Assembly: GCA_045544765.1 (NCBI GenBank)
Contig: JAZPZQ010000022.1
Location: 9,837 to 73,836, forward strand
DNA from: Candidatus Nanosyncoccus sp.
GTDB lineage: Bacteria > Patescibacteriota > Saccharimonadia > Saccharimonadales > Saccharimonadaceae
Direction: 5' to 3'
Length of the DNA: 64,000 nucleotides
Positions 11,672-54,078 of the stretch are shown here, one piece after another. The notes under the pieces were generated by a model that saw only the letters and a program-made list of their open reading frames with translations, made no database searches and was not told where the DNA came from. The translations under genes were made by a program, and so were the position numbers. Numbering within the stretch: position 1 is the first letter of the stretch; each line of letters begins with the position of its first letter.

Positions 11672-12451
11672 ATGGCATTCGATTTCAAGAAAGAATATAA
11701 AGAGTTTTATATGCCGAAGAATAAACCGGCGATTATCGAAGTGCCAAAGATAAACTATATCGCCGTTAGAGGCAAAGGCAACCCCAACGAAGAAAACGGA
11801 GATTATCAGAATACTTTAGGCCTACTATATGGCATAGCTTATACGCTAAAAATGAGTTATAAGGGCGATCATAAGATAAATGGGTTCTTTAAGTACGTTG
11901 TACCACCACTAGAGGGCTTTTGGTGGCAAGATGACAAAGACGGCATAGATTACGATCATAAAGAAGATCTAAACTTTATCTCAATTATTCGTTTACCGGA
12001 CTTTGTAACGAAAGCTGATTTTGACTGGGCGATAGAAGAAGCCACCAAAAAGAAAAAACAAGACTTCTCTAGGGTGGAGTTTTTAACTTATGACGAGGGC
12101 TTATGCGTCCAATGTATGCATATTGGGAGCTACGACGACGAACCGGCTACCGTTGAATTGATGCATAAATACATGCAAAATAACGGACACGAACTCGATA
12201 TAACTGATAAAAGATATCACCACGAGATTTATCTAAGCGATCCAAGAAAATGTGACGCAAGCAAGCTTAAAACCGTAATCAGACACCCAATTAAGAAAAG
12301 TGGCTGGTCGGAAGAAGCTTGTAAAAACATGATGGAATTAATAGAAACCGTTAAGAAGATCGAGAAAGAGCAAGCTAAAATGACGCCGGAAGAAAAGAAA
12401 CGCAACGAGTGGGCAGCTTGGGACGGCGACACTATGCTGTTTAAATATTGA
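11672..12451 (+). CDS. GyrI-like small-molecule-binding domain protein
   Basis: MAFDFKKEYKEFY, VPPLEGFWW, HIGSYDDEP, HHEIYLSDPR; ~45-aa extra C-terminal tail. Confidence 0.85.
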   Translation: MAFDFKKEYKEFYMPKNKPAIIEVPKINYIAVRGKGNPNEENGDYQNTLGLLYGIAYTLKMSYKGDHKINGFFKYVVPPLEGFWWQDDKDGIDYDHKEDLNFISIIRLPDFVTKADFDWAIEEATKKKKQDFSRVEFLTYDEGLCVQCMHIGSYDDEPATVELMHKYMQNNGHELDITDKRYHHEIYLSDPRKCDASKLKTVIRHPIKKSGWSEEACKNMMELIETVKKIEKEQAKMTPEEKKRNEWAAWDGDTMLFKY

Positions 12452-12461
12452 TACCGCCTCG

Positions 12462-12932
12462 ATGGCGCAACCTCAAAGAAACGAGGTTATGATGGCAAAA
12501 CGCCGCATATACAAGAAGTCAAGGAATGGCGAGCCTATTAAGGTGACCGCCAGGCAGCTTCATCAACTCTACGTTAAGCACGAAGGTATCCTTACTTCGC
12601 GCGAATATAGCGATCTAAAGAATATGGAGCTGGTAGATTCAAACATTAGAGACGCCAAATGGGCGCTTAGAGAGTTTGATGACGAAACGCTGCTCGGAAC
12701 TTGGGATAAGGAGATGCGCTTTGGCTATGGAAAACGCATTTATATCCATTACGACGGCGAGGACAAGGATAAATACTTCTTCTCTCTCGCCTACATTCCA
12801 CGCGCCCTAAATAACCGCGACGTAAACGAAGCGATTCTGCGCATGTATTTCGTACGACGTTGGACCGTAACGAAACTTTGGCTTTGGGCCGAACCAGTAG
12901 ATATTACACCAAGCTACGGCCGCGAATTCTAG
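12462..12932 (+). CDS. Hypothetical protein
   Basis: 156-aa ORF; likely true start ~12492 after a GAGG SD; no motif recognised. Confidence 0.65.
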   Translation: MAQPQRNEVMMAKRRIYKKSRNGEPIKVTARQLHQLYVKHEGILTSREYSDLKNMELVDSNIRDAKWALREFDDETLLGTWDKEMRFGYGKRIYIHYDGEDKDKYFFSLAYIPRALNNRDVNEAILRMYFVRRWTVTKLWLWAEPVDITPSYGREF

Positions 12933-13150
12933 AAAATAAAGTGTCAGAAAGTCAATAGATAGCATCCACTTGATCACAATCGGACTTTTGGCCTTTTTCG
13001 TGCAGAAAACAGGGATAAAGTTTTTTCTTGACCTGAAATCGCTAAATGTTGTGAAATATGTGCGTGAAAAGCCGGTCGCAGGCGCCGAAAAGAGTGCGTT
13101 TCATGATATAATTAAGCTAAGGATATTTATAAATTTAATGTGGAGATAAC

Positions 13151-14656
13151 ATGATTGTCGGAGACTTACGCAACAAAGTGGATTCCATCTGGGATACGAT
13201 TTGGACCGGTGGTATTACTAACCCGATTACTGCAGTTGAGCAGATTACTTATTTAATGTTCATTAAGCTGCTTGATGACAATCAGCAGAAGGACGAATCG
13301 AAAGCTAATTCCCTCGGTATTCCACTGGAGCGCAAAATCTTCGGAGAAGGCGTCTGTGTAATCTCCGAAAAACCTCGTCTCGAAGCAAATTACGAAGATA
13401 TGCGTTGGCACGTTTTTCATAATTTCGATCCAGAGACTATGTTTAATACCGTAAAGGACTACGTCTTCCCATTCATTAAGACGATCGGCGACTCCACATT
13501 TAGTAAATACATGGATAGCGCAACGTTCCTAATCCCTACACCACTGGTTCTCTCTAAGATTGTAGATGGCATCGATGCCATGGATATGAATAATAAAGAT
13601 ATCATGGGTGATGTCTACGAATATCTTCTTAGTAAAATTGCCGCTTCTGGCCAAAACGGTCAGTTCCGCACTCCGCGCCACATCATCAATATGATCGTGG
13701 AACTCATGCAACCGACACTCAATGATAATATCCTGGATCCAGCTATGGGCAGCGCCGGATTCTTGCTCTCAACTATTCGTTATGTCGGCGAACATCAAGA
13801 AGATGATCTTATGGTGCCAGAAAAGCGCGATTACTACCGCTCTAAGCTTGTTACTGGCTTTGATACCGACCAATCTATGCTTCGTATTGGAGCAATGAAC
13901 TTAATGCTCCACGGTGTCGATAGTCCAAACATCAAATACCAAGATTCGCTTTCAAACGATAATACCGAGCGCGAAGCTTACTCTATGATTATGGCTAACC
14001 CACCATTTGCTGGTAGCCTTTTCCCAGATCAAGTGTCAAAGGATCTTCTCTCACTAGCCAATACGAAGAAAACAGAACTCTTGTTTGTTGCGTTATTTAT
14101 CAAGACACTAAAGATTGGTGGCCGCTGTGCGTCAATCGTCCCGGATGGCGTCTTATTTGGTAGTAGTACGGCCCACAAGGCGCTACGCAAAGAACTTGTC
14201 GAGAATCAGAAGCTTACCGCCGTAATTTCTATGCCTTCGGGTGTATTTAAGCCATATGCAGGCGTTTCTACGGCAATCTTAATCTTCACCAAGACCGATA
14301 CTGGCGGAACCGACAAGGTTTGGTTCTATGATATGAAAGCTGATGGCTTCAGTCTAGATGATAAGCGCGCCGCAGTAAAAGAAAACGATATTCCAGATAT
14401 TATCGAACGCTTCCATAATTTGAATAACGAAGAAGATCGTAGGCGTACCGACCAATCATTCTTTGTACCTAAAGACGAAATCGCAAAGAATGGTTACGAT
14501 CTTTCTATTAATAAGTACAAAGAAGTAGAATACGAGAAAGTCGAATATCCACCAACATCTGAAATTCTTGCCGATATCGAGAAATTAGACAAGGAAGTGG
14601 CCGATAACCTTGCCGAATTAAAGAAATTATTAACCGAAACAAATTCGAATTTGTAG
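13151..14656 (+). CDS. hsdM: Type I R-M methyltransferase subunit
   Basis: GQFRTPRHII, DPAMGSAGF, ANPPF, SINKYKE. Confidence 0.96.
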   Translation: MIVGDLRNKVDSIWDTIWTGGITNPITAVEQITYLMFIKLLDDNQQKDESKANSLGIPLERKIFGEGVCVISEKPRLEANYEDMRWHVFHNFDPETMFNTVKDYVFPFIKTIGDSTFSKYMDSATFLIPTPLVLSKIVDGIDAMDMNNKDIMGDVYEYLLSKIAASGQNGQFRTPRHIINMIVELMQPTLNDNILDPAMGSAGFLLSTIRYVGEHQEDDLMVPEKRDYYRSKLVTGFDTDQSMLRIGAMNLMLHGVDSPNIKYQDSLSNDNTEREAYSMIMANPPFAGSLFPDQVSKDLLSLANTKKTELLFVALFIKTLKIGGRCASIVPDGVLFGSSTAHKALRKELVENQKLTAVISMPSGVFKPYAGVSTAILIFTKTDTGGTDKVWFYDMKADGFSLDDKRAAVKENDIPDIIERFHNLNNEEDRRRTDQSFFVPKDEIAKNGYDLSINKYKEVEYEKVEYPPTSEILADIEKLDKEVADNLAELKKLLTETNSNL

Positions 14657-15799
14657 ATGAGTATGGATAATACAATAAGACTAAAAGATGCATGCAAAAT
14701 TCTAAATGGTTTCGCATTTAAGAGTAGTAAATATGTCGATTCGGGAATTCGGATTATCCGTATAGCAAATGTCCAGAAAGGATACGTTGAAGACGAAAAG
14801 CCAGCATTCTATCCAGACTCCGAAGAACCACTAATTCGCGACTATATGCTTGAAGAAAATGATCTTCTTTTATCGCTTACCGGAAACGTCGGACGTGTTG
14901 CATTGCTAGATAAGAAATGGCTACCGGCCGCACTTAATCAACGTGTCGCTTGTTTGAGAATTAAAGATGACAGAATCATAAAAGACTATTTATACTTCGC
15001 ATTGCTTTCTGATAAATTTGAGAACGATTGTATTAAATCATCAAAAGGCATTGCGCAGAAGAATATGAGTACCGAGTGGTTAAAAGACTACGAAATACCT
15101 CTGCCGAGTGAGCAAAGGCAACGAGAAATTGTCTCTTCACTAAAACATTTATCCGCAATTATCAAAAATAAAACTGAGCAAATTCGACAATTAGACAATC
15201 TCATCAAAGCCCGATTTGTCGAGATGTTCGGCAATGTCGTAGCCAATGATAAAGGATGGCCTACCGAGCCAATATCAAAGGCGGCACCCACAAGCTCACC
15301 AAAAATCAAAAACAACGAAACGGTTTGGCTTCTTAACCTAGATATGGTCGAATCGCAATCTGGCAAGGTGATAAGCAAGCTTATCGTTTCTGAAGACAAA
15401 ATTAACGCCTCTACATGTACTTTTGATGAAAATAATGTTCTCTATTCTAAGCTTCGTCCATATCTAAATAAAGTCGTTTTGCCGGATCAAGAAGGTTATT
15501 GCACTACTGAATTAGTCCCATTAAAGCCAGGCAAAGAACTTACCAGAGAGTTCTTGGCCACATTGCTAAGAAGTGACGCATTCGTGGGCTACATTAATGA
15601 AAAGACCGCCGGCGCGAAAATGCCACGTGTTTCAATGAATATTTTTAGGCAATTCGAATGTATCCTACCACCAATTGCACTGCAACAACAATTTTCAGAA
15701 TTCTATAACCAAGTCGACAAATCAAAATTTGCCGTACAGAAGTCACTCGAAAAGACTCAACAATTATTCGATAGTTTAATGCAGGAGTATTTTGGCTAG
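14657..15799 (+). CDS. hsdS: Type I R-M specificity subunit, expressed allele (TRD1 + TRD2a)
   Basis: Two TRDs, central KARFVEMFG, C-terminal QVDKSKF...DSLMQEYFG; starts immediately after the hsdM stop. Confidence 0.95.
   Translation: MSMDNTIRLKDACKILNGFAFKSSKYVDSGIRIIRIANVQKGYVEDEKPAFYPDSEEPLIRDYMLEENDLLLSLTGNVGRVALLDKKWLPAALNQRVACLRIKDDRIIKDYLYFALLSDKFENDCIKSSKGIAQKNMSTEWLKDYEIPLPSEQRQREIVSSLKHLSAIIKNKTEQIRQLDNLIKARFVEMFGNVVANDKGWPTEPISKAAPTSSPKIKNNETVWLLNLDMVESQSGKVISKLIVSEDKINASTCTFDENNVLYSKLRPYLNKVVLPDQEGYCTTELVPLKPGKELTREFLATLLRSDAFVGYINEKTAGAKMPRVSMNIFRQFECILPPIALQQQFSEFYNQVDKSKFAVQKSLEKTQQLFDSLMQEYFG
15204..15228 (+). repeat. Shufflon repeat A, copy 1
   Basis: TCAAAGCCCGATTTGTCGAGATGTT. 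Exact inverted copy at 17326-17350; 20-bp direct copy at 18631-18650. Confidence 0.92.
15713..15732 (+). repeat. Shufflon repeat B, copy 1
   Basis: GTCGACAAATCAAAATTTGC. Inverted copy within 16819-16850; direct copy within 19132-19163. Confidence 0.92.
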
Positions 15800-15851
15800 A
15801 AAGCATCTCCTTTTGTTAGTGGAGGTTCTAATCTAACAAAAGGAGTTATTA

Positions 15852-16820
15852 ATGGAGGAAACCATTAAATACATTTTGGTGGATATGGACGAATATCTCA
15901 CCGCAAATCAGTCACAAAAACTACAACGCGTACTTGTTTCGCGCTTAACAAAAGAAACGAGATCGATAAATGGCATTTCGAACGACAACTATCTGTCAAT
16001 GTTTCTGAATGCCAAAAAGATAGAAGGATGTTCCGAGCGGACTCTATCCTACTATAAAACTACCGTAGAAAAGCTATTAGACAAAATAGACGACCCAATA
16101 CGCAAAGTAACAACTGATGATATACGGGATTACCTTGCTAACTATCAAGGCTTAAATGGTTGTAGCAAAACGACAATCGATAATATCCGCCGCAATATCT
16201 CGAGCTTCTTTACTTGGCTTGAGGAAGAAGACTATATCATTAAAAGCCCAATGCGTAGGATCCATAAAATCAAAACCACAAAAACCGTGAAAGAAATAAT
16301 CTCGGACGAAGAAATCGAAAAAATGCGCGACAGATGCAGTAGCTTACGCGACCTGGCAATTATTGACCTTCTCTACTCGACCGGAATTAGAATTGGTGAG
16401 CTCGTAAGACTTAATATTGACGACATAGACTTTGAAGAACGCGAATGCATAGTTTTCGGCAAAGGCGACAAAGAGCGGCGCGTATATTTCGATGCTAAAA
16501 CCAAGATACACCTAATGGGCTACATAAATAGCCGCTCTGACGCAAATCCTGCCCTTTTTGTGACGCTTGACGCGCCTTACGATAGATTACAGATATCTGG
16601 CGTAGAAATCCGTCTGAGGCGCTTAGGACGCGAATTAGGCATAAATAAAGTTCACCCTCATAAATTCCGCCGGACTATGGCGACACGTGCAATCGACAAA
16701 GGAATGCCGATCGAGCAGGTTCAGAAACTACTAGGACACTCTCAGATCGATACGACCATGCATTACGCGATCGTAAATCAAACAAACGTAAAAGTCGCAC
16801 ACCGTAAGTTCATCGCTTAG
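15852..16820 (+). CDS. Tyrosine recombinase (shufflon invertase/integrase)
   Basis: STGIRIGEL, GKGDKER, HPHKFRR, LGH...TTMHY catalytic residues; sits between hsdS cassettes. Confidence 0.95.
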   Translation: MEETIKYILVDMDEYLTANQSQKLQRVLVSRLTKETRSINGISNDNYLSMFLNAKKIEGCSERTLSYYKTTVEKLLDKIDDPIRKVTTDDIRDYLANYQGLNGCSKTTIDNIRRNISSFFTWLEEEDYIIKSPMRRIHKIKTTKTVKEIISDEEIEKMRDRCSSLRDLAIIDLLYSTGIRIGELVRLNIDDIDFEERECIVFGKGDKERRVYFDAKTKIHLMGYINSRSDANPALFVTLDAPYDRLQISGVEIRLRRLGRELGINKVHPHKFRRTMATRAIDKGMPIEQVQKLLGHSQIDTTMHYAIVNQTNVKVAHRKFIA

Positions 16821-16850
16821 CGCAAATTTTGATTTGTCGACCTGAGCAAC
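16819..16850 (-). repeat. Shufflon repeat B, copy 2 (inverted)
   Basis: 32-bp exact reverse complement of 19132-19163; its 20-bp core matches 15713-15732. Confidence 0.92.
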
Positions 16851-17515
16851 AAAGGCGGCGAACACGTCAATGCTCGCTTTATCGGGGACTGGAAGTTTAA
16901 CCTTATCGAGCATATATCGAGTTATCTGGTTAATTGTTGTGGTTCCTGTAGATATTTGCGAACGAAATTCTGGCAGCTGAAAATAAGTCATGAGATATGG
17001 GTAATAATCGCTTCGTACAATCATCATGAACGCGCCGAAGCTCATTTGTTCCTGAAGGTCGGGAATGAGTGCAACTTTCCCGACAAGCTTAGCACTACCG
17101 TTCCTTGAGCACATCAGAATATCATTTTTCTTTACCATCTTTTTGTCGCCGATGTCGCATTTTACGCGGACAATGTCATTAAGATCTAACCGCATGCTTT
17201 GTATGTTGCTTGAACGCAAAACAATAGTTCCGTCATTTGACACGTCTGTCGGTTTATAAGTTAGCCCGTTCCAATATTCGGCTATGTCTGAAAGTGGTTT
17301 AATTGGGTATGTTTTTGAGTCGTTAAACATCTCGACAAATCGGGCTTTGACTAACTCATCTAACTGAATTAATTCTTTGTTTCTATCGGAGATTATGGAC
17401 TCGATTTTTCGCAAAATCATGCAGGCGCGCTTTTGCCTCTCTATATCTATCCATTCGATTTCGTAGTTGCTTAGATACAAATCGGTTTTAAGATTGTGGA
17501 GACCTGTTGTTTTTT
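16822..17515 (-). pseudogene. hsdS: Silent inverted hsdS cassette (TRD2b plus truncated tail of an alternative TRD1)
   Basis: ...KTTGLHNLKTDLYLSNYEIE...KARFVEMF...QVDKSKF; no intact start and no proper C-terminal tail. Confidence 0.85.
17326..17350 (-). repeat. Shufflon repeat A, copy 2 (inverted)
   Basis: AACATCTCGACAAATCGGGCTTTGA is the reverse complement of 15204-15228. Confidence 0.92.
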
Positions 17516-17558
17516 TTGTGAATAAATGTTATAACATATTTAACAATAAGGAGGATTT

Positions 17559-18527
17559 ATGAATTATAAAAAAATAGTAGTTGCTGGTGGTGGAGTTTTA
17601 GGTAGTCAAATAGCCTTTCAATCAGCATATTGTGGATATGATGTAACAATATGGTTAAGAAGTGAAGATAGTAAAACAAGAACACAACCTAAGCTAGATG
17701 CATTAAAAAAAGATTATATTGAAACCATCGAGTCTTTAGACACTAATGATGAGAATAGTTGGGCAAGAGGAATATCTGACATTGATAGTTTTAATAAAGA
17801 GGAATGTTTAAAAAAAGTTGATCTTGCCTATAACAATATTAAATTAGAAGTTGATATGAAAGAAGCAGTGAAAGATGCAGATTTGGTAATTGAATCTATG
17901 GCTGAGATTAAAGATGAAAAAATTAAATTTTATCAAACTTTAGCTCCATTGTTAGAAGAAAAAACGGTTATTGTAACTAACTCTTCTACTCTATTACCAT
18001 CTATGTTTGCTAAATATACAGGAAGACCCGAAAAATATTTATCACTTCATTTTGCAAACACAATATGGGTTAAAAATACAGCCGAACTAATGTCTCATGA
18101 TGGAACCAACAAAAAATATTTTGATGAAATTATGGAATTTGCAACAAGTATTCGAATGCTACCTCTTCCAGTATTAAAAGAAAAATCAGGATATCTATTA
18201 AATTCTATGCTTGTACCATTTTTATTAAGTGGTATGGATTTATTAACGAATGGAATATCTGATGCTCAAAGTATTGATATTGCCTGGAAAAGAGGAACAG
18301 GAGCTCCAAAAGGACCATTTGAAATTATTGATACTGTAGGATTGACAACCGCAAAAAATATAGTTGAACAATATCAAAAAGTTCCTGGATTAATGAGTCC
18401 ATTATTAAAGAAAATGATGCTACCATATAATTATAAAGGCATGCTTAATATGTTAAATAAATACATTGACGAAGGTAAATTAGGAAAATCAACAGGCGAA
18501 GGTTTTTATAAATATGACAAATCATAA
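17559..18527 (+). CDS. 3-hydroxyacyl-CoA dehydrogenase, AT-rich foreign gene
   Basis: GGGVLGSQIA Rossmann motif, DLVIESMAE, TNSSTL, LHFAN, GPFEIIDTVGL, GKLGKSTGEGFY; strong GGAGG SD. Confidence 0.92.
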   Translation: MNYKKIVVAGGGVLGSQIAFQSAYCGYDVTIWLRSEDSKTRTQPKLDALKKDYIETIESLDTNDENSWARGISDIDSFNKEECLKKVDLAYNNIKLEVDMKEAVKDADLVIESMAEIKDEKIKFYQTLAPLLEEKTVIVTNSSTLLPSMFAKYTGRPEKYLSLHFANTIWVKNTAELMSHDGTNKKYFDEIMEFATSIRMLPLPVLKEKSGYLLNSMLVPFLLSGMDLLTNGISDAQSIDIAWKRGTGAPKGPFEIIDTVGLTTAKNIVEQYQKVPGLMSPLLKKMMLPYNYKGMLNMLNKYIDEGKLGKSTGEGFYKYDKS

Positions 18528-18630
18528 TCATTTGCAAATGTCATAATGTTGTGTTATATTTTATTTAGTAATTGAGAAAATCGTGAGTTCATAGATTTGT
18601 GCCGATTTTTCGTAAACACGTTAAATTGAG

Positions 18631-19163
18631 GCCCGATTTGTCGAGATGTTTTATGATACTGATAGCGAACGAGTAAAGATAGCTGAATTAGTTGAGCAGA
18701 AAATTCCGACTGCTAAAAAGGATTTTGAGAGCGATGCAGAGATTAAGTATATTGATATCTCATCTATCGACAATAAACGCAATATAATGACTGGATTTAC
18801 GAAATACAAAATGTCGGACGCACCTTCTAGGGCGCAACAGCATGTACAGTTTGGCGATATCCTCATATCTACTGTAAGACCAAATTTAAAGAATGTTGCC
18901 ATGGTTTCTCTTGATAGCGATAATCTGGTCGCTTCTAGCGGATTTTGTGTCTTGAGATCTAAAAAATGCACTCCAGAGTTTCTAATGGCTATAGTTTGTT
19001 CCGATAAATTTACGGACGCAATGATTAATGTTGTTACAGGCGCAAACTACCCCGCAATAAAGAACTCAGACGTATTGAATTACTGCGTTCCATTACCGAG
19101 TGAAGAACAACAAAGGAATTTTTCAAACTTCGTTGCTCAGGTCGACAAATCAAAATTTGCGCT
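18631..19163 (+). pseudogene. hsdS: Silent TRD2c cassette bounded by repeat A (18631-18650) and repeat B (19132-19163)
   Basis: MFYDTD...STVRPNL...STG-like SSGF...GANYPAI...QVDKSKF; lacks TRD1. Forms the first ~170 aa of ORF 18646..22356. Confidence 0.85.
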
Positions 19164-19221
19164 TCAAAAATCCATCATAAGCCTTATGAATTTATGCAGT
19201 TTATGGTATAATATGAGTAAT

Positions 19222-22200
19222 ATGTTTTCGAGCGGCTATATGGGAAGACTCGAGCTAATTCGAGCACTTCCTACGAAGGAAGAGAAAGCTAAGGCGTCAC
19301 GCCTAGTTCTTCGTGAAGTACTCGAACAAATCTTTCCAGAGAAATCAGCTAAGAAAAAGAAAAAATACTCTCTTCTTGAGCTGATTGACTGCTCCCCAAT
19401 AAGAAACTATGTAAACGACGATCAGGTTACCGAATCGCTTCACTTTATTCGTATTATAGGTATTCGTGCTGAACATAATCAGCCAGTTCGTGAGAAAGAT
19501 GTAAAAATTGCCGTAGATAACCTGGAATACTTCATAAAGTTCTTGGACAACAAGAATAACACTTATGAAGAGCCAACGAAGTCTCCGGAATATTTCTCGG
19601 AAGCTGAAACTAGGGCGGCATATATCGACATGTATCTACGCGAAGCCGGATGGGATGTACTAACCCAAAAAGGCGTAGCCCTTCCTGGTAAAGCCGGTAT
19701 AGAAATAGAAGTCGGCAATATGCCTAACAACGCAGGTGTTGGCTACTGCGATTATGTACTTTACGACCGCGCCGGCAAGCCACTTGCTGTTGTCGAAGCG
19801 AAAAAGACTTCAAAGGATCCGCAAATTGGCCGTCATCAGGCAGACCTTTATGCGGAATCGCTGAAAGAAAAGTTTGGTTATAAACCAGTAATCTACTACA
19901 CAAATGGCTACGAGACCCATGTTATTGATGGCGTTTATCCTGATCGGAAAGTAACAGCATTCCACACTCTTGAAGAACTTGAGCGTATGATTCAGCGCCG
20001 AAATCGCGGCAATATAACTGATATGGCCGCAAAAGACGAAATCGCTGGCCGTCCATACCAAAAGATGGCCCTTACGCGCATGTGTGAGCGCTTTAACGCG
20101 CATCATCGCCGCGGACTAGTAGTTATGGCTACCGGCACCGGTAAAACGCGTGTATCAATCGCTTTGACGGATATTTTGGCAAGAAATGGCTGGATCAAGA
20201 ATGTCCTATTCTTAGCCGATCGAACTTCTCTCGTTAAGCAGGCAAAACGTAACTACGCAAAGCTTCTGCCAGATATGACAATCTGCGAGCTTTCTGAAGG
20301 CGGAAACGCAAACAAAGACATGAATGCTCGCTTGATGTTCTGTACTTATCAAACGATGATCAACTATATTGACGCCGAAGACAAAGATTTCTCGACTGGA
20401 CGTTTTGACTTGATTATCGTCGATGAGGCACACCGCTCAATCTTTAACCGTTACGCTTCGATTTTTGCCTATTTCGATAGCTTACTTGTCGGCTTTACCG
20501 CTACACCACGCGACGAAGTCGGAAGTAGCACATATGGAATATTCGAGTGTGAATCCGGAGAGCCAACTTTTGATTATCCACTAGAAGATGCAATTAAAGA
20601 GCATTATCTTGTAGGCTATGAAGTTATTAACCGTCATTCCCGTATTATGACGCAAGGTATTAAGCGCGAAGAACTGGACGAAGATCAACTCGAACAGTTG
20701 GATGATTTTCTTGAAGGCGACCGCGAAACGCCAGACTTAACAATTCCGGCAAATGCAATTTTCCGCTCTATTTTCAATGAAGATACTTGTCGCAGCGTAC
20801 TTGAAGACTTAATGGAAAAAGGCATCCGCGTAAATGGCGGTGAAACTATCGGAAAAACAATCATTTTTGCATACAACCACAAACACGCCGAAATGATCGT
20901 TAATGAATTCAAGAAGCTTTACCCCCATCTTCCATCAAATACCTGTCAGTTGGTCGACTATTCCGTAAACTACGCCGAAGATCTAGTAGTTAAGTTTGAC
21001 ACCGATGATGAGTTTAGAATTGCTGTTTCTGTCGATATGCTCGACACCGGTATCGATGTTCCTGCCGTTTCCAACCTCATGTTCTTCAAGCCAGTGCGTT
21101 CAAAGATTAAGTTTGTCCAGATGATTGGTCGCGGTACGCGTCTCTGCCCAGACTTGTTTGGTCCAGGCAACGACAAAAAGAAGTTCCTTATCTTCGATTA
21201 TTGCGATAACTTTGAATATTTCCAGGTAGAACATAACGAAGTAGTTAGCGCCGGCGATAAAGTTTCACTATCGCAAAGAATCTTCGCACTTCGATCAGAA
21301 ATCGCATATAGCCTCCAAGATTTCGAAAGTCAAGAAGACGAATTTCTCAGTAGCTATCGCGACAAAACCGTCCGCATACTCCTCGATATTGTTAAGGATT
21401 TAAAGAAAAGTACCAACCGTATTGCTGTTCGCCAAAATCTAAAATACGTCGATAAATATAACAACGACAAAGCATGGCTTGCTCTAACACCTGTAAATGT
21501 TCATGAACTTAAGACTTTTGTCGCACCACTTATTGAAGGCGGCTCTGACTCCGATTTCAAGGCTCTATCATTCGATATTAGAATGATGAGGATCCAGAGA
21601 GCAATATTGAAAAATACCCCAGCTTATGCGACTGCCGACGTAAAGAAAGTACGCGAAATAGCGCAATACCTTCTTCAAAACAAGATGACTATTCCGCAGG
21701 TTGAAGCCAAGAAAGATGATCTTAAAGAGCTATATGATGAATCTAGCTGGAATGAGCCACAAGTAAAAGACCTAGAGCGTCTACGCGATTCCGTACGCGA
21801 GCTAATTAAGTACATTACTGGCGACGAACTCAGATTAATCGATATCGACGTAAGCGACGAACTTGTAGATCCAGACTTCCAACCAGACGGTACAGTTATC
21901 GATATTCGCACATACAAGGAACGTGTAATTGATTACTTAACGAAGAATGGCGACGACATAACCATTGAAAAGATTCGCAATCTTGAAAAACTTGATCAGA
22001 AAGATGCTGAAAAGCTCAAACAATTGCTTTGGTTTGATTTAGGCTCCGAAGACGAATATAACGAGAATGCAAATGGTAAAAGCCTTGCTGCATTCGTACG
22101 TAGCTTGATAGGTATAGACCAAGATGCTGTAAATGAAAAGTTTGGCGAGTACCTTAATGCTCATCAACTTAATTCTAAACAGCAAGAATTCATTAATTTT

Positions 22201-22356
22201 ATCGTCAAATATGTCCAAAAGAACGGCGACATTGAACTTGCTGACCTACTAAAGACGGATCCGTTCAAATCCATCGACTGGAATGAACTATTTGGTGGCA
22301 ACGTAGAGCCAATCAAATACACTGTATCAGTACTCCATGATGCAATTGCCGCATAA
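19222..22356 (+). CDS. hsdR: Type I R-M restriction subunit (probable start 19222; frame open from 18646)
   Basis: DYVLY...VEAKK nuclease, MATGTGKT, DEAH, SVDMLDTG, QMIGRGTR. TGGTATAAT at 19204-19212 sits 9 nt before ATG 19222. Confidence 0.93.
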   Translation: MFSSGYMGRLELIRALPTKEEKAKASRLVLREVLEQIFPEKSAKKKKKYSLLELIDCSPIRNYVNDDQVTESLHFIRIIGIRAEHNQPVREKDVKIAVDNLEYFIKFLDNKNNTYEEPTKSPEYFSEAETRAAYIDMYLREAGWDVLTQKGVALPGKAGIEIEVGNMPNNAGVGYCDYVLYDRAGKPLAVVEAKKTSKDPQIGRHQADLYAESLKEKFGYKPVIYYTNGYETHVIDGVYPDRKVTAFHTLEELERMIQRRNRGNITDMAAKDEIAGRPYQKMALTRMCERFNAHHRRGLVVMATGTGKTRVSIALTDILARNGWIKNVLFLADRTSLVKQAKRNYAKLLPDMTICELSEGGNANKDMNARLMFCTYQTMINYIDAEDKDFSTGRFDLIIVDEAHRSIFNRYASIFAYFDSLLVGFTATPRDEVGSSTYGIFECESGEPTFDYPLEDAIKEHYLVGYEVINRHSRIMTQGIKREELDEDQLEQLDDFLEGDRETPDLTIPANAIFRSIFNEDTCRSVLEDLMEKGIRVNGGETIGKTIIFAYNHKHAEMIVNEFKKLYPHLPSNTCQLVDYSVNYAEDLVVKFDTDDEFRIAVSVDMLDTGIDVPAVSNLMFFKPVRSKIKFVQMIGRGTRLCPDLFGPGNDKKKFLIFDYCDNFEYFQVEHNEVVSAGDKVSLSQRIFALRSEIAYSLQDFESQEDEFLSSYRDKTVRILLDIVKDLKKSTNRIAVRQNLKYVDKYNNDKAWLALTPVNVHELKTFVAPLIEGGSDSDFKALSFDIRMMRIQRAILKNTPAYATADVKKVREIAQYLLQNKMTIPQVEAKKDDLKELYDESSWNEPQVKDLERLRDSVRELIKYITGDELRLIDIDVSDELVDPDFQPDGTVIDIRTYKERVIDYLTKNGDDITIEKIRNLEKLDQKDAEKLKQLLWFDLGSEDEYNENANGKSLAAFVRSLIGIDQDAVNEKFGEYLNAHQLNSKQQEFINFIVKYVQKNGDIELADLLKTDPFKSIDWNELFGGNVEPIKYTVSVLHDAIAA

Positions 22357-22367
22357 AAAAGACCACC

Positions 22368-22718
22368 CTACTGGGCGGCTTTTTGATACGCTTCTACAGC
22401 TTCGCGAACTCCGCATTCTGGACAAATCTCCGTCTCGTTATCTACGCGAGATAAAGCCGGATGCTCCGTAAACTCTTTTTTGCATTTCGGACAACACTGA
22501 AGCTCTAGGATCTTGTAAGCCATAGTTTTAGGTAGAGATTCAAGCTCCTCTCGCAGAATATCTTCGTCATCGTAACGCTTAGCGTCAACTAAAAACGAAG
22601 AATATTGCTCGTTCGACTTAAGATCCACACCGTTGTTGTCATATTTGCCGACATAATACCAAATATCTTTATCGTGAATTACGCCGATAACGTATTCACA
22701 TATACTAACATTACTCAT
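22368..22718 (-). CDS. Small protein with C-terminal zinc ribbon (mobile-element type)
   Basis: CPKC...PALSRVDNETEICPECG; SD AAGGAG. Confidence 0.75.
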   Translation of the reverse strand: MSNVSICEYVIGVIHDKDIWYYVGKYDNNGVDLKSNEQYSSFLVDAKRYDDEDILREELESLPKTMAYKILELQCCPKCKKEFTEHPALSRVDNETEICPECGVREAVEAYQKAAQ

Positions 22719-22734
22719 ATAAATACTCCTTAAT

Positions 22735-22839
22735 AACCCTGCAAGGTCTTTTCTAACACCGACCGTTAAAGAGCAACTTTAGATTAAAGTTAATATTCGG
22801 TTGTGGGTTAGTTAAAATTGCGGCTCCCTTTGCAGGGTT
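22735..22839 (-). ncRNA. Candidate structured 5' leader RNA
   Basis: Three nested helices (see findings) between a TTGCAA/TAAATT promoter and the SD. Confidence 0.4.
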
Positions 22840-22926
22840 GTCCAATTTAACCTTACTTTGGGACATTTTGCAAGTCATTCCACACCTTACGACCCCAAGA
22901 AGATATGGTATAATATAGACAACTAA

Positions 22927-23715
22927 TTGGAAGTTGTAATGCCTGAAAATGTAACAGAATTAGTAACCGACTTAATTGAGCTTCATCGTGAAGGAGTCGA
23001 CTTTGCTAATTTGTTCCATGAAACTTCCGAACTCTCGAAATCGGGCAAAGACGACCAATCCATCTTAGAGCACATCGACTACGAGCTTATTTATCTCAGC
23101 GACAAACACGAAGATATAACCAACCCTAAAGAAAAAGCCAAAAGGTACTACGACGACTGGGGTTTCAAATGCCTAGATCTACTCTGTAATATCGTGCCGC
23201 AACGATTCATCTTCAAATATATGAATTCAAAAGCCCAAATTCCGAATGATGCAGATTACTACGAAAAAATCGCATTAAGTTTTAATGCTGAGACGAAGGC
23301 ACTAGCCGAGATAATCCCAGAAATTGAGCGCGAATACGAAGACGGGCACAAACAGCTCTTCTATGACGACGATAAAGATATTAAGGTGAACTACGATCCA
23401 AAAACTCGCACGATCCACGTCGGCAATAAAGTAGTGCGTTTCCGCGAAGACGCGCCATTCACTCCTGCTCTTTGCGAAATTATATTTAAGGATCCAACAA
23501 AACTTTACGAATTACGCGATTTTCAGACCGTCTGGGATGATTTGTATGACTATATAGGTAATGAACGCCCTTCGGACTGGCACCGCGTCTACGAGGTCTT
23601 AAAACGCCTTAACGAACGCATTCGCAATATCGCCGGAATCGACGATTTATTTGAACTAAATACAAAATCAGTTAGAATTAATAATAGTTTTTTGAATGAT
23701 AGACAAAGAAAATAA
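22927..23715 (+). CDS. Hypothetical protein with probable C-terminal OmpR-like winged helix
   Basis: Beta-strands YDPKTRTIHVG, recognition helix RVYEVLKRLNERI, terminal wing. ATG at 22939 is the likelier start. Confidence 0.6.
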   Translation: MEVVMPENVTELVTDLIELHREGVDFANLFHETSELSKSGKDDQSILEHIDYELIYLSDKHEDITNPKEKAKRYYDDWGFKCLDLLCNIVPQRFIFKYMNSKAQIPNDADYYEKIALSFNAETKALAEIIPEIEREYEDGHKQLFYDDDKDIKVNYDPKTRTIHVGNKVVRFREDAPFTPALCEIIFKDPTKLYELRDFQTVWDDLYDYIGNERPSDWHRVYEVLKRLNERIRNIAGIDDLFELNTKSVRINNSFLNDRQRK

Positions 23716-24460
23716 GAAATGCAGACTCTGCGACGCGCCTTTAACTGCAAGTAATAAGAGAAGGTCTCATGCTCTTACAAAGGCATCATTTTTTGATCCG
23801 CCGACACTTAAGCCTGGCGAACATCTCCTACTACTATCGCCATACTGTCCAAACGAAGTAGACGCAGGACATCATACGTGGGAATACGCATTATGTGCAG
23901 ACTGCGAGTTAAAACTTGCTAAATGGGAACAAGAAAGAGAACGATTCTTGTCGTCCGCAGACAGGCCGACGAAAACTCCAGAAGAGCAGCCATGTGTTTT
24001 TGCCGAAGATTTTAATCAAGAATATATCGTTTTAGCCTGTCTTTCGGATTTGTATAGATGTCATATATTCACAGATTCGGCCTATAGTGGTGTAAATTTA
24101 GGCGAAAAACATTCAAGTAAAATAGCATCAATTTTAAATCAAGGAAAAATAGATAATTATAATGACTACCCTATAGTTTTCAGGCGTTTTAACAATAAAA
24201 ATAATATAGCAGATGAGGCTTTCCAGGTGCCTTATAAAGTTCGCTTCGAAAACCGCATTGTATGCTATGAGGTTATAGCACCTAGAGGCTGGACTTGGAT
24301 GATAAAAGTTGATAGCCAATCGAGCGAATTATTTGAAAAATACGCTCTTGGATCGTCTTCTAAAATTCATATTTTTAATGCTGGGGACATACAAGAAAAT
24401 AGGAACCGAAGAATCTTTGGCGGATTTATATCTGCTGCCTTGAGAGGTCTTGGTAAATAG
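23696..24460 (+). CDS. Zn-binding HNH-like putative nuclease
   Basis: CRLC...SHAL...CADCE arrangement typical of His-Me finger proteins; overlaps the upstream gene. Confidence 0.5.
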   Translation: MIDKENKKCRLCDAPLTASNKRRSHALTKASFFDPPTLKPGEHLLLLSPYCPNEVDAGHHTWEYALCADCELKLAKWEQERERFLSSADRPTKTPEEQPCVFAEDFNQEYIVLACLSDLYRCHIFTDSAYSGVNLGEKHSSKIASILNQGKIDNYNDYPIVFRRFNNKNNIADEAFQVPYKVRFENRIVCYEVIAPRGWTWMIKVDSQSSELFEKYALGSSSKIHIFNAGDIQENRNRRIFGGFISAALRGLGK

Positions 24461-24530
24461 CGCAATATTATCGCAATAATAACGCTGAACTCTCTTTTTG
24501 TATCCTTGGAATATGGAATGAAGAGGTAAT

Positions 24531-24647
24531 ATAACGTATCAGAAAGACAAGAAACTGGAGCAACAAGCACTCGTAAAGTTTCTAGAAATATTAATCGATA
24601 TAGACAAGCGCGAACATGTCGTTAATAAGGATGACGACAATGAATAG
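24531..24647 (+). CDS. Possible 38-aa helical microprotein (non-canonical ATA start)
   Basis: ITYQKDKKLEQQALVKFLEILIDIDKREHVVNKDDDNE*; GAGGT 3 nt before ATA; stop overlaps the SpoVG-like start. Confidence 0.35.
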   Translation: MTYQKDKKLEQQALVKFLEILIDIDKREHVVNKDDDNE

Positions 24648-24957
24648 CTTTATATCAGAAATCGAAATAATGCCAGTAAAGCCACATGGCGGACTGGTGG
24701 CCTTCGCAAGCTTTGTGCTATACGGAACGATTTACTGTAGTTCCGTCGGCATCATGACGCGACTAGACGGCTCATATAGACTCACCTTTCCGACCAAAAA
24801 GGTTGGACTGAATAGCTTCGGAATATTCTACCCGATAGACCGATATGTCGGGCAAGAAATAGAAGAAGCAGTGATTAGTAAATATGAAGACGTAATGAGA
24901 GCTAGTGATGATCGATACTGTGATTCTCCGAGTGAACTACCCCAATTTCAGGATTAG
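24640..24957 (+). CDS. SpoVG-like nucleic-acid-binding protein
   Basis: ISEIEIMPVK...GLVAFASFVL...RLTFPTKK...FYPI...IEEAVI; AAGGA SD before ATG 24640. Confidence 0.7.
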   Translation: MNSFISEIEIMPVKPHGGLVAFASFVLYGTIYCSSVGIMTRLDGSYRLTFPTKKVGLNSFGIFYPIDRYVGQEIEEAVISKYEDVMRASDDRYCDSPSELPQFQD

Positions 24958-26119
24958 CCCGAGTGTTTATCGCAAGTTCTCTCCTTCTGCTCATGGCATC
25001 TTTGGACCACCATACTATTCTTTTGGATCCGGCAAAGTTATTAAATGTGTATTACAGATAAAAGCGAAAGATAAGAAGCTAGGAGTATATCAGCCGCGCG
25101 TAACGCTTATGAAAGCGGTACGAGCCGGTGGCGTTTCTGTATTCTTGCACATCGAATTTTCGGCACCAAAGATTCTTTATAATAATAACTTTGACGAGCT
25201 TAGCTCTGGCGACTTTAAAGCCGTCTGCGCGGAACTATATCGCAAACTATATAAGCTTGGAATCGAGATTAAAAGAAACCAAATAGAAAGAGCCGAAGTT
25301 AAGACGATTCACTTTGGCAAGAATATCATATTTGACGATTACCGGACTGCGGCTAGTGTAATTGGCGATATTGCGAAAGCGAATGTATCGACCAGGAAGC
25401 AAGCCGATATGCGCGTATATCGGAACGATGGCGAAGCTCTGCATTTTTATAGTGCAAGCCAAGCCATTGCGATTTATGATAAGCGAAGAGAGCTGGCTAA
25501 GTCTCGCGTCAGCGAGCGCGGACTACTCGAGAAAGATAACTACTGCCAACTTACGCTATTTGATAATATCCGTAGCAAGAAGCCCTTTGAGGTGGTGCGT
25601 GTTGAAGCGCGATACAACACTAAGCGCGCTTTCAATACCGCGCTGAAACACGCTCTCGAGTACGGCCGCGCGAGCGATAGTGTCATGAAGCTCACTACAA
25701 AGCAAAAGCTTGTTTTCGTAGATATATTCAACGAAGAGTTAGCCAAGACACTACTTGAATATGAATTTGCGCAGATTGAGGCGAAGAATCTAGACTTAAA
25801 CGAAACGATTATGAATACAGCTACAAGCTTCCTTCATGAGATAAATACATTAAACCCAAAAGCAACTCTAGCACAACGCCTAGAGACTTTGGCAATATGG
25901 AGCCTAATGCGCGAAACCGGAAGCCGAGACGTTCGTAAAATGACCGGTGCTAATTCGGCGCAGTGGTCCAGGCTTACGAAGAAGATATCGAAAATCTATT
26001 TTAGAACGAGAAAGAGTAGCTCTACTAGCTACATAGAAGATAAACTGGCCGAATTCAAGCAAGTACGATTGCTTGAATACTTCACAGAATTAAATAAGGT
26101 GCGCGCTGGGCCAGACTAG
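24905..26119 (+). CDS. Rolling-circle replication initiator (phage gpII/X, CRI/Rep_trans-like)
   Basis: MIDTV, IEFSAPKILYNNNF, IYDKRRE, VRVEARY. Confidence 0.65.
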   Translation: MMIDTVILRVNYPNFRISPSVYRKFSPSAHGIFGPPYYSFGSGKVIKCVLQIKAKDKKLGVYQPRVTLMKAVRAGGVSVFLHIEFSAPKILYNNNFDELSSGDFKAVCAELYRKLYKLGIEIKRNQIERAEVKTIHFGKNIIFDDYRTAASVIGDIAKANVSTRKQADMRVYRNDGEALHFYSASQAIAIYDKRRELAKSRVSERGLLEKDNYCQLTLFDNIRSKKPFEVVRVEARYNTKRAFNTALKHALEYGRASDSVMKLTTKQKLVFVDIFNEELAKTLLEYEFAQIEAKNLDLNETIMNTATSFLHEINTLNPKATLAQRLETLAIWSLMRETGSRDVRKMTGANSAQWSRLTKKISKIYFRTRKSSSTSYIEDKLAEFKQVRLLEYFTELNKVRAGPD

Positions 26120-26217
26120 CGCTTATGTAGGGTGGTTCTTTACGGCTATTTTAGTTGCAAATAGCCCAGCTCCAAAGGTCCATTTATGATATGGACTTAT
26201 GAAAGGTTTAGGGTATT

Positions 26218-27924
26218 ATGTTTGATAACATGGGAAACTCTACCCCTGTAAATACCGGCCAAACTAACGAGCCGCAACTAACAAGAAAAGCCGTTCTATT
26301 CGCTCGCGTATCAACGGCGCGACAAGAAAAAGAAGGCTTATCTCTCGATGAAATTCAGCTACCGCGAATGCGCGATTATGCAATCGAGCAAAACTTGAAA
26401 ATCGTACGAGAATACGCCATTGGCGAGACTGGCGGCAGCTACAAGGAGCGTAAACGTTTCAACGAGATGATCCAGTTTCTAAAGGATAATCCGGACGTAA
26501 CGGATATTATCGCCTTCCGCGTAGATCGTATTACCAGGAACTTCCGCGACGCGGTAACGATTGAAGACTTACGTATTAAATACGGCAAGCGTATCCACTG
26601 TGTCGATGAAAGACTGATTCTCTCGGAGAATAGCCGCGCGACCGACCTCACATCTTGGAATGTGAAGGTTTTTGTGGGTCAGGAATATCTGAACCGTATT
26701 AAGGAAGATGGCTTAAACACGAAGATTAATAAACTGTCGCGTGGCGAGCTACCATGGAGCGCGCCTTATGGTTATGAATTTAGGACCATTAGTGTCAGAC
26801 CGAAGGTTAAAAACGTCGTACCAGTAGAACCGGCCGCCTCGATCGTAAAAGAAGTATTCTTGCTCTTCTCAACCGGAACTTATTCATGTAGGACTTTGGC
26901 GAGACTAATGAACAAGAAATACGGAACTAAATTCTCTCAAGGAATCATCCATAAATTCCTAAGATGCGAGTTTTATGTTGGATTTATTATCGATAAAAAA
27001 GGCGGAAAGAAATATCCGCATAATTATGAGAAGATAATAGATCGGGAGTTATTCGATATGGTCAACCAGATATTGGACAAGAGAAATCTAAAGAGCGACG
27101 ACCAGGTACCAAAGTATGGCGGAATAGACTCAGCTTATCGCGGTTTAATAAGGTGTGAAGAGTGTGGATGCACGATAACGCCAGAATTTAAGAAGCGCAA
27201 ACTAAGACATGGCGGCTATAATTACCATAAATACTACCACTGCACAAATCGACGCGGAGCACATAAGAGCTTGAAAAGCTATACCGAAAGCTACCTTGAT
27301 GAGCAAGTAAAAGAGTTCTTAAGAGGCTTAAAGCTAACCGAGGAAGAATTGGACGGAGTCAGAAAGGCACTGGCCGAAGCACACGCTGGAAAGATAGATT
27401 TCTATCGCGAGCAACGCCGAAGCTTGTCTCAAAAGCGCAAGAAACTAGAAGCGAGACAACAGGAAGCTTACGATATGTTGATGGACAAGAGTATTACTCT
27501 GGAACTTTATAACCAAAATAACGAGCGATATCGCAACGAACTGGCCGAGATCCAGGCGCAAGAAGCCGCGCTAGATCGAGCCGACGACAACTTCTATACT
27601 AACGCCGGCTATATCTTGAAAGTCTTTAAATATGCCGATAAATTATTCGACGTCGCGACGACGGCCGAAAAAAGAGACCTAATTGGTCTCGTCACGTGTT
27701 CGAACCGAACTTTAGGACCTAGTGGGCTGATATTACAGGGGTCAGGACCGTTCGCTCGGAACCTTTTGGACTCTAAAACTAAAAATGGCTGGGGTGAAGG
27801 GATTCGAACCCCTGAATGGTGGGACCAGAACCCACTGCCTTACCACTTGGCGACACCCCAGTACAAAACTAATTATATCACAAGTTTATTCGCTTCGCAA
27901 CGCTTCCACCGGGTCTTTGCGTGA
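26218..27924 (+). CDS. Large serine recombinase (integrase)
   Basis: LFARVS catalytic Ser, VDRITRN, APYGY, Zn ribbon CEECG...YYHC, coiled coil. The last ~46 codons are antisense tRNA and flank. Confidence 0.93.
   Translation: MFDNMGNSTPVNTGQTNEPQLTRKAVLFARVSTARQEKEGLSLDEIQLPRMRDYAIEQNLKIVREYAIGETGGSYKERKRFNEMIQFLKDNPDVTDIIAFRVDRITRNFRDAVTIEDLRIKYGKRIHCVDERLILSENSRATDLTSWNVKVFVGQEYLNRIKEDGLNTKINKLSRGELPWSAPYGYEFRTISVRPKVKNVVPVEPAASIVKEVFLLFSTGTYSCRTLARLMNKKYGTKFSQGIIHKFLRCEFYVGFIIDKKGGKKYPHNYEKIIDRELFDMVNQILDKRNLKSDDQVPKYGGIDSAYRGLIRCEECGCTITPEFKKRKLRHGGYNYHKYYHCTNRRGAHKSLKSYTESYLDEQVKEFLRGLKLTEEELDGVRKALAEAHAGKIDFYREQRRSLSQKRKKLEARQQEAYDMLMDKSITLELYNQNNERYRNELAEIQAQEAALDRADDNFYTNAGYILKVFKYADKLFDVATTAEKRDLIGLVTCSNRTLGPSGLILQGSGPFARNLLDSKTKNGWGEGIRTPEWWDQNPLPYHLATPQYKTNYITSLFASQRFHRVFA
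27786..27860 (-). tRNA. tRNA-Gln(CTG)
   Basis: Cloverleaf; anticodon arm GTGGG-TTCTGGT-CCCAC; GGTTCGAATCC; encoded CCA. Confidence 0.96.
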
Positions 27925-54074: not shown

Positions 54075-54078
54075 ATTA

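Follow-up and report, generated by a model that had tools for sequence, protein, structure and literature searches.

What kind of genetic element is driven by a replication initiator and a large serine recombinase (LSR) whose reading frame runs into a tRNA gene? The question is raised by a stretch of 64,000 nucleotides (hereafter the window, numbered from its first letter; positions 9,837 to 73,836 of contig JAZPZQ010000022.1, assembly GCA_045544765.1) from Candidatus Nanosyncoccus sp., a genome of the ruminant gut type of Saccharibacteria. Between 24531 and 27924 the window holds four co-directional genes on the + strand, namely a micro-open reading frame (micro-ORF), a SpoVG-like gene, the gene for the replication initiator (Rep) and the LSR gene (Table 1), and this observation is confirmed as real and non-random. 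I consider it likely that the block drives a larger integrated mobile element, spanning 8213-27785, which carries cargo, is integrated by the LSR and is replicated by Rep. In kind it is probably an integrative, replicative element with a defence cargo. A preliminary description of the same DNA, made from the letters alone, took the four open reading frames (ORFs) to be overlapping or tightly coupled; all four are indeed real and co-directional, but the LSR gene begins behind a spacer of 98 nt and does not overlap Rep.

The four-gene module and its proteins

One genome per species was scanned, which yielded 293 loci with a relative of Rep, and 80 of these were kept for the analysis of synteny. 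The SpoVG-like gene lies immediately upstream of Rep in most of the 80 loci, and the LSR gene lies downstream of it, either adjacent or beyond 1-7 kb of inserted cargo, which in the relatives consists of restriction-modification (R-M) systems, HigBA-like toxin-antitoxin pairs and membrane proteins. The identities of Rep and LSR co-vary over 53 loci (Mantel r=0.94, a value that 0/2000 permutations reach). The preliminary description had proposed a synteny search as a check on its reading, and the core of micro-protein, SpoVG, Rep and LSR did turn up repeatedly, next to a tRNA where the LSR ends. In the literature I came across no account of the four-gene module. Its minimal form is seen in two contigs of 4.3-4.5 kb, which hold a gene of 258-268 aa, one or more small genes, Rep, an optional HTH_17 gene, the LSR and the tRNA. 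The word minimal, earlier applied to the element in the window, suits such copies of ~4.4 kb found elsewhere and not the 19.6 kb island described below.

By the labels of the records, the hosts of the module are Saccharibacteria, Peregrinibacteria/Peribacteria, other Patescibacteria, Dependentiae/Babeliales, Gammaproteobacteria, Alphaproteobacteria (Rickettsiales, Ca. Enterousia) and others. Because loci lie in metagenome-assembled genomes (MAGs) labelled as other phyla, the element is not specific to the Candidate Phyla Radiation (CPR), to which it had first been assigned. Related loci come from gut MAGs of buffalo, sheep, goat and yak. One sub-family, from MAGs of Ca. Enterousia and other Alphaproteobacteria (L030, L033-L037, L048), is without the SpoVG-like gene and keeps the micro-protein directly before Rep; the same loci carry a HigB/HigA-like pair between Rep and LSR and target tRNA-Pro.

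Rep is filed here as a putative member of the G2P family and not of Rep_trans. The assignment follows from transitive sequence evidence, in that ten homologues of Rep, 39-51% identical over their full length, score 25.5-41.4 bits on PF05144 ('Replication-associated protein G2P N-terminal'), for which the cut-off is 21.7. Rep_trans (PF02486) is matched by only 1/36 members of the Rep family. Of the two names put forward at the outset, Rep_trans and CRI, it is the family G2P/Phage_CRI that is supported, by way of the homologues. The Rep family and M13 gpII (taken from the phage record) both carry MID-x-L-x-L-R, (V/I)E..SPAK.L.G.N.F, a Tyr and R-x-E-A-R, and the invariant Y190-D-K of Rep aligns with Y197 of gpII, which I take to be the active-site residue of that protein. 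All catalytic and invariant residues are intact. The closest homologue of Rep, at 98% identity, is attributed to a Saccharibacteria MAG, and a search with the Rep profile returned 1527 cluster representatives among 1.84 billion proteins.

The genes upstream of Rep are tightly interlocked. Rep and the end of the SpoVG-like gene share 50 nt, and the likely ATG of the SpoVG-like gene in turn overlaps the stop of the micro-ORF. The SpoVG-like protein, whose homologues are ~98 aa long, scores 25.9 bits against the Pfam family SpoVG (PF04026), under the cut-off of 29.6, and PF04026 is present in most of its 63 homologues. Its family profile matches 2i9z in the PDB (E=1e-4), and an AlphaFold2 model (pLDDT 82) has SpoVG proteins as all ten of its best Foldseek matches in the PDB (TM 0.6-0.77). 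At the level of profile and predicted model, then, the SpoVG fold that the first reading had suspected is confirmed for the protein encoded at 24640-24957.

The micro-ORF has no ATG, GTG or TTG: a TGA at 24519-21 is followed by AGA GGT AAT ATA, and its frame is the sole one open there. It was missing from the mechanical list of ORFs because it lacks a canonical start codon. Among nine close strains, 7/9 variable sites are synonymous, and the first 30 codons vary synonymously only. In ~60/82 related loci jackhmmer found a homologous small ORF right before the SpoVG-like gene or, in loci without that gene, right before Rep, and the family shares the motif L-x-x-F-F-x-L-L-I-E-I-D-R/Q. The micro-protein matches no family in Pfam, NCBIfam or PADLOC.

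Probable integration at the end of a tRNA gene

The LSR matches the Pfam families Resolvase (PF00239, E=1.2e-10, residues 25-136), Recombinase (PF07508, 9e-11) and Zn_ribbon_recom (PF13408, 3e-7), as well as the integrase phrog_95 in PHROGs (7e-59). Its serine motif, ARVSTARQ (RVSTxxQ type), lies near residue 30, and its length is 526-568 aa, where large serine recombinases usually measure about 450-700 aa. The CCA 3' end of tRNA-Gln points toward the LSR, and a promoter-like site for the tRNA lies at 27900-27872 on the - strand. The LSR of sister strains ends 12 nt into the tRNA, at a TGA in its acceptor stem (526 aa); in the window strain a compensated acceptor-stem variant removes this TGA, and the frame crosses the whole tRNA and gains 42 codons (568 aa). 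That the LSR frame crosses the CCA end of tRNA-Gln was correctly seen in the preliminary description, but reading through the whole tRNA is, by the strain comparison, an accident of one strain's tRNA variant.

The way in which the tRNA end is read recurs far more widely. The LSR lies downstream of Rep in 60 loci, and in 48/60 its stop region coincides in part with a tRNA gene on the other strand. Ten types of tRNA are found at LSR ends (Gln, Asn, Pro, His, Trp, Ser, Arg, Asp and Glu, plus Val in L085). In 38/49 loci, and for eight tRNA types, the CCA end (TGG) serves the LSR as a Trp codon exactly 10 codons past (K/E)PF(D/E/A), and the stop codon comes from whatever the tRNA sequence offers further in. 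The window clade has its register shifted by one nucleotide (…GPFARNLLDSKTK|NGWG*). This fixed register of the tRNA CCA suggests that attP, the attachment site of the element, is embedded in the LSR's own last codons, and the sequences indicate that the arrangement has persisted through many changes of target tRNA.

Where does the island end? Relatives retrieved via the left-flank gene were compared with the window. In L122 and L125 an ABC-transporter gene, tRNA-Gln and the gene of 320 aa stand in a row without an insert, and L107 has the same three genes with the tRNA oriented as in the window. The empty site of L107 (attB) reads …CATTATAGCAC-AAAAAA-TGGCTAGGG(tRNA), i.e. …GCAC-AAAAAA-TGGCTAGGG. 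In the window, the left junction (attL) reads …TATACATG-AAAAAAA-CCCAAATTG (island), i.e. …CATG-AAAAAAA-CCCAAATTG, and the right junction (attR) reads …AAAACT-AAAAA-TGGCTGGGG. The island limits are drawn from the comparison of the L107 empty site with the window, and I place them with moderate confidence, because their basis is one comparison and a homopolymer. The crossover core of the window clade is probably the A-run just outside the tRNA; since the shared core lies there, the tRNA would stay uncut and intact.

Large serine recombinases typically use short att sites with a 2-bp crossover, and very little core is common to their attL and attR. The window junctions share only this run of A5-7, against 11-30 nt in relatives. 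Direct repeats of 11-30 nt in L033, L068, L063, L023 and L036 start at -6 to +3 of the tRNA 3' end and recur 6.9-10.3 kb upstream, so delimiting complete elements. Seeds of 10, 3-mismatch scans and anchored k-mers found no long direct tRNA repeat in the window, and the far end of the window island has no displaced tRNA fragment, whereas L033 and L068 have one. The 11-mer AAAAATGGCTG in L001 sits where two genes closely adjoin and was put down to chance. At the left boundary, the listed ORF 7226-8239 (- strand, 337 aa) is not a full gene but an artefact, over-extended into the island: homologues and the promoter put the true start of the flanking gene at 8188 (MARQKK...), and the 17 extra codons belong to the island. 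Neither of the two flanking genes has an exact protein match on record.

Between the same two flanking genes the tRNA-Gln, with its TGTGRTATAAT promoter and trailing TTTTTTGTGC, is found either way round, whether or not the island is there (L107, L117 and L119 compared with L122, L125, L008, L011 and L012; 27786-27900 and 8188-8212 in the window). Because the island always lies on the 3' side of the tRNA, the window lineage has the unit of tRNA plus island the other way round from L007, L008, L011 and L012. Inversion of the tRNA by a recombinase at att-like sites is one possibility.

Several observations speak for mobility. Identity of the module reaches 87-91% between genomes that are only 65-72% identical in their flanks. 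Empty tRNA-Gln sites exist (L107, L122, L125), so the element is not fixed, and the concern of the preliminary description that it might be fixed in all relatives is answered. Neither LSR nor Rep turned up in any of 41 related metagenome loci, tRNA-Gln being present in 23 of them. In four public runs the depth over the tRNA is 10-50x that over the LSR, a ratio which implies that most tRNA-Gln copies in those four communities are without the element. Near-identical modules carry different cargo, with ADP-ribosylglycohydrolase, nuclease and methylase genes in L001 and R-M systems in the window. The R-M cargo, the conserved driver and the empty sites together uphold the original proposal of an element that integrates site-specifically and carries defence genes. 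Upstream of tRNA-Gln, other loci (L094, L098, L106, L108, L116, L118, L127) hold unrelated inserts of 1.3 to >9.8 kb that contain neither LSR nor Rep, and their presence at the same spot suggests that the 3' side of tRNA-Gln is a general hotspot in Saccharibacteria.

From the proposed junctions, the LSR of the excised window element is predicted to end in …KTKNPNCK* with 527 aa, instead of 568 aa when integrated. The forecast that the integrase C-terminus changes on excision therefore still holds as a prediction, although the long tail across the tRNA, from which it was first drawn, is peculiar to the strain. The reconstructed attP form of the LSR is unchanged in L033 and L068, gains 25-31 aa in L023 and L063, and loses 16 aa in L036; any functional meaning of such a change is hypothetical. 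At 27794, two contigs of runs X1 and X19 are identical to the window through the end of the LSR and 9 nt into the tRNA, and then continue into unrelated sequence (CAAATTAAGCAGGCAT; ATGAGGGATATAG... / ATGAGGGATATAGAATCCC...). These loose ends are unplaceable and could be other types of junction, e.g. a variant attP, a tandem copy or a secondary site.

Proposed mechanism and competing explanations

How might such an element work? The LSR would insert a circular element at the 3' end of tRNA-Gln(CTG), with attP inside its own last codons and the 3' half of the tRNA serving as one half-site of attB, and excision would swap the C-terminus of the integrase. On the excised circle the G2P-type Rep would nick an origin through Tyr190 and drive rolling-circle replication, which may maintain or amplify the excised element and would yield single strands. 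The micro-protein and the SpoVG-fold protein, translationally coupled, may be partners of Rep that bind the origin or the single strands, or that regulate Rep. The R-M cargo would repay the host for carriage. For transfer between cells, a candidate route is Rep acting as relaxase for the relaxase-poor chromosomal type IV secretion system (T4SS) of the MPF_FATA type, with transformation or a helper single-stranded DNA (ssDNA) phage as alternatives. Rolling-circle replication, the roles of SpoVG and the micro-protein, excision and the intercellular route are the parts of this scheme that I infer.

The spacer between Rep and LSR, which is conserved solely within the close clade, may hold a terminator, an LSR promoter or an origin. 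The octamer GTTCTTTA at 26135, identical to that of the M13 nick region, was rejected as an origin; it has three copies in the island, which is chance level, and is unconserved in distant elements.

A number of results weigh against an LSR-integrated, Rep-replicated element. The circular junctions that the preliminary description had suggested looking for did not appear: no circular attP junction or excision joint was found in the public contigs of Logan, which are fragmented, and the raw-read runs examined were without the organism. Rep itself has no match in Pfam (even at E<=0.1), PHROGs, NCBIfam or PADLOC, hhalign of the Rep profile against the single sequences of gpII or pT181 RepC was not significant, and the Rep model (pLDDT 86) matched no solved structure in the PDB, Rep_trans included. 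No conserved origin motif was found on the element. In RNA libraries the only signal was faint, from contigs covering the LSR and the 3' end of Rep, and may be DNA carry-over. The left junction is an A-run supported by a single empty-site comparison, without a long repeat. Finally, a recombination directionality factor is not evident in the window clade, from which the HTH_17 gene is absent. In many distant members a small gene (M..QYYSIEEVAK.LKVAYLTVYRWI...) lies right after Rep (L021, L023, L024, L047, L071, L073, L075, L082; 2490-2684 in L086), and that of L086 is a candidate directionality factor because it is annotated as HTH_17, of the excisionase type.

The best surviving alternative, though an unlikely one, is that Rep is primarily a relaxase. 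The element would then be an integrative mobilizable element (IME), nicked at an origin of transfer (oriT) and piloted as a strand through a resident T4SS, a reading compatible with the integrated, Rep-driven element preferred here. MobT relaxases of Tn916/ICESt3-type elements are relatives of Rep_trans, and streptococcal IMEs often have relaxases resembling rolling-circle initiators without a T4SS of their own (PMC5704250). One member of the Rep family does match Pfam Rep_trans, transfer genes are absent from the elements, and chromosomal MPF_FATA-type T4SS without known relaxases are reported in most Patescibacteria (10.1101/2025.01.22.634366). However, the Rep family is nearer to phage G2P than to MobT, Rep is without a MobT-like N-terminal helix-turn-helix, the elements are without a coupling protein, and MAGs of Proteobacteria and Dependentiae also hold members of the family.

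By the criteria applied to IMEs, the island has an integrase and lacks T4SS genes. It resembles the IMEs of Firmicutes with Rep_trans/MobT or Rep_2 proteins (PMC5704250, PMC5357655) in being small and chromosomal, with a site-specific recombinase, a rolling-circle initiator protein, and cargo that includes toxin-antitoxin or R-M genes. Those elements likewise lack conjugation and capsid genes of their own, and some have serine recombinases. However, their serine recombinases disrupt protein-coding genes, and it is the elements with tyrosine integrases that use tRNA 3' ends. A Rep of the G2P family and hosts among Patescibacteria and other small-genome lineages further set the present element apart, and the SpoVG-fold and micro-protein partners have no counterpart in the IME modules described.

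A satellite or remnant of an ssDNA phage (inovirus- or microvirus-like), whether as circles packaged by a helper or as the leftover of a filamentous prophage, seems very improbable. Rep belongs to the family of filamentous-phage gene II, a small nucleic-acid-binding partner beside it recalls gene V, and the best structural matches of the Rep model are viral proteins in BFVD (E=4e-8, TM 0.50), although these are unnamed and so unusable for identification. The preliminary description had found no capsid, relaxase, T4SS or transposase genes, and searches of the ORFs tested from 8392 to 27924 with Pfam and PHROGs agree with it. Nor was any pI/Zot-type morphogenesis ATPase or coat protein found among the ORFs scanned or read in translation in the window and its relatives, and morphogenesis ATPase, coat and capsid genes are absent from the window island and from five fully delimited relatives. 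Relatives of Rep are encoded in 2 of 2.9 million IMG/VR contigs, tblastn found none in 50,697 phage genomes or in plasmid collections, Rep has no PHROG match, and the interval between Rep and LSR holds R-M, toxin-antitoxin and membrane genes.

The likeness to M13/f1 lies in the gpII motifs with the Tyr, and in the small nucleic-acid-binding protein next to Rep, which the preliminary description had compared to the gene V protein (gpV). It stops there, as virion genes are absent, pairwise profile statistics are weak, and gpV has an OB-fold, whereas the partner here has a SpoVG fold and lies upstream of Rep and overlaps it.

That the locus is fixed and domesticated, its LSR serving the host, e.g. 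by flipping the tRNA-Gln region or controlling neighbours, I regard as the least credible reading, for although tRNA-Gln and its promoter occur in both orientations and no excision product was seen in public contigs, there are empty sites and unrelated inserts at the same spot, module identity far exceeds that of the flanks, the module sits at ten tRNA types in several phyla, and its catalytic and invariant residues are intact.

The integrative, Rep-replicated element favoured here can also be set beside two kinds of island at tRNA genes. The tycheposons of Prochlorococcus (10.1101/2020.12.28.424599) are likewise variable islands at tRNA hotspots, and 27/937 have a large serine recombinase. 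However, they have their own lineage of tyrosine recombinases, replication genes for primase, helicase or polymerase, and cyanobacterial hosts, and they have neither a G2P Rep nor SpoVG; the element is not a tycheposon, and the resemblance is one of organisation only. The tDNA islands catalogued by Islander (PMC4383910) also have an integrase gene that abuts the tRNA 3' end, and L033 and L068 share with them a displaced tRNA 3' fragment; unlike those islands, the present ones use an LSR, and the only repeat in the window clade is the A-run just beyond the tRNA. According to the same study, serine integrases do not specify tRNA genes, and tRNA targeting is a habit of tyrosine integrases, in agreement with a remark of the preliminary description. 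It is because tRNA targeting was attributed to tyrosine integrases that the tRNA-end core is noteworthy. A lineage of serine integrases that sits systematically at tRNA ends, with fixed geometry, breaks this working rule.

Temperate mycobacteriophages offer a precedent for a protein altered by integration: attP lies inside the reading frame of the repressor, a tyrosine integrase acts on it, and integration alters the C-terminus of the protein. The difference here is that the altered gene is that of the serine integrase itself, and any functional consequence is only putative. A more far-reaching version of the proposal, which I would call doubtful at best, is an old, cross-phylum LSR lineage of tRNA 3' ends in which the C-terminus works as a switch for directionality or stability, and in which Rep, SpoVG and the micro-protein form the 'missing' relaxase system. 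If true, rewriting of the C-terminus would let the cell distinguish an integrated from an excised copy, and the elements would ride the orphan, relaxase-less T4SS of Patescibacteria.

What is known, then, is the IME- or tycheposon-like way of working; what is new is the LSR that reads tRNA ends, the phage-type G2P Rep, and the SpoVG and micro-protein partners. The many natural pairs of LSR and attB aimed at conserved tRNA sequences may be of interest for genome engineering. A compact gene-delivery vehicle of ~4.4 kb, widespread among lineages from which few mobile elements are known (Saccharibacteria, Peregrinibacteria, Dependentiae, reduced proteobacterial symbionts), could account for the spread of defence systems among them. 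The translational coupling to a replication initiator also points to a place for SpoVG-like genes beyond sporulation, and the element is a testable candidate for the cargo of the relaxase-less T4SS of Patescibacteria.

Cargo, neighbouring genes and minor features

The features of the island are collected in Table 1.

Table 1. Positions of the genes, junctions and attachment sites of the island in the window (MTase, methyltransferase; REase, restriction endonuclease; SD, Shine-Dalgarno).
Feature	Position	Strand	Details
Whole integrated island (proposed)	8213..27785	+	19,573 bp; GC-skew sign flips at ~8 kb and ~28 kb; flanks contiguous, but for the tRNA, in empty-site loci L107, L122 and L125
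attL core, left junction (proposed)	8206..8212	+	A7 run between promoter of flanking 320-aa gene and island
Type II R-M cargo	8392..11035		N6/N4 MTase 8392-9180; REase 9167-9892 (-); Dam-like MTase 9992-11035; Pfam; PADLOC MTase_II/REase_II
Phase-variable type I R-M cargo	13151..22356		hsdM, hsdS, tyrosine recombinase, inverted hsdS, dehydrogenase-like gene, fusion of hsdS half and hsdR; Pfam
116-aa zinc-ribbon protein	22368..22718	-	phrog_2945; kept with the module in Saccharibacteria relatives (L001-L014)
262-aa protein (p262)	22927..23715	+	leftmost gene of the clade's conserved block; same place in L001-L019, L016, L017
254-aa variable cassette gene (p254)	23696..24460	+	phrog_19960/phrog_7075, PHROGs of unknown function
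Conserved micro-ORF, 38 codons	24531..24647	+	non-canonical start, possibly ATA; SD-like AAGAGGT at 24521-27
SpoVG-fold protein (predicted fold), 105 aa	24640..24957	+	likely start ATG 24640; longer ORF from 24616
Rep, putative replication initiator of the G2P/Phage_CRI family, 403 aa	24908..26119	+	putative catalytic Tyr Y190 in IAIYDK
Rep-LSR spacer	26120..26217	+	98 nt; two short hairpins, 26144-26166 and 26178-26196
Large serine recombinase (LSR)	26218..27924	+	conserved part of the protein stops near 27797, followed by 42 codons of read-through over the tRNA
attR core, right junction (proposed)	27781..27785	+	A5 run immediately 3' of tRNA-Gln
tRNA-Gln(CTG), target-side half-site, apparently intact	27786..27860	-	ARAGORN; Rfam 58.9 bits
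Predicted attP, excised form			GGACTCTAAAACTAAAAA|CCCAAATTGTAAAT; also written …GGACTCTAAAACTAAAAA|CCCAAATTGTAAATAATGAC…
Predicted attB			GCACAAAAAATGGCTGGGG...; empty attB junction …GTATATTATACATGAAAAAAA|TGGCTGGGGTGAAGG…

The type I R-M system is a shufflon, in which two or three hsdS target-recognition segments in opposite orientation surround a tyrosine recombinase (15852-16820), with inverted repeats I1-I3 of 26-41 nt. In the arrangement seen here, ORF 18646-22356 joins an hsdS half-domain in frame to hsdR, and joints of the inverted, opposite-strand kind (15228/16859 and 16818/19163) occur in public contigs. Between the inverted hsdS and hsdR lies a gene like that for 3-hydroxyacyl-CoA dehydrogenase (17559-18527), an odd passenger for a defence locus. 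The stretch of 8.1-11.4 kb with the type II R-M system is absent from the populations of the four public runs.

Of the genes to the left of the module, p262 has 9 homologues and matches no family in Pfam, NCBIfam or PADLOC. Its neighbour p254, which also has no family in these three databases, is absent from all close relatives, where homology is interrupted over 23682-24455, and a joint in public contigs skips 772-779 nt. It is a presence/absence cassette (23683-24454) between p262 and the micro-ORF, and other strains have 12-19 unrelated nt in its place.

No second copy of the module was found near tRNA-Val or tRNA-Trp in the window. The stretch 54000-56500, which adjoins tRNA-Val (56569-56645), has low GC (0.36-0.39) and reversed GC skew and encodes two membrane-type proteins; it contains neither an integrase nor a copy of the module. 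As part of the ordinary chromosomal context, an Rfam ribosomal protein L10 leader lies at 2054-2142 on the - strand (50.8 bits).

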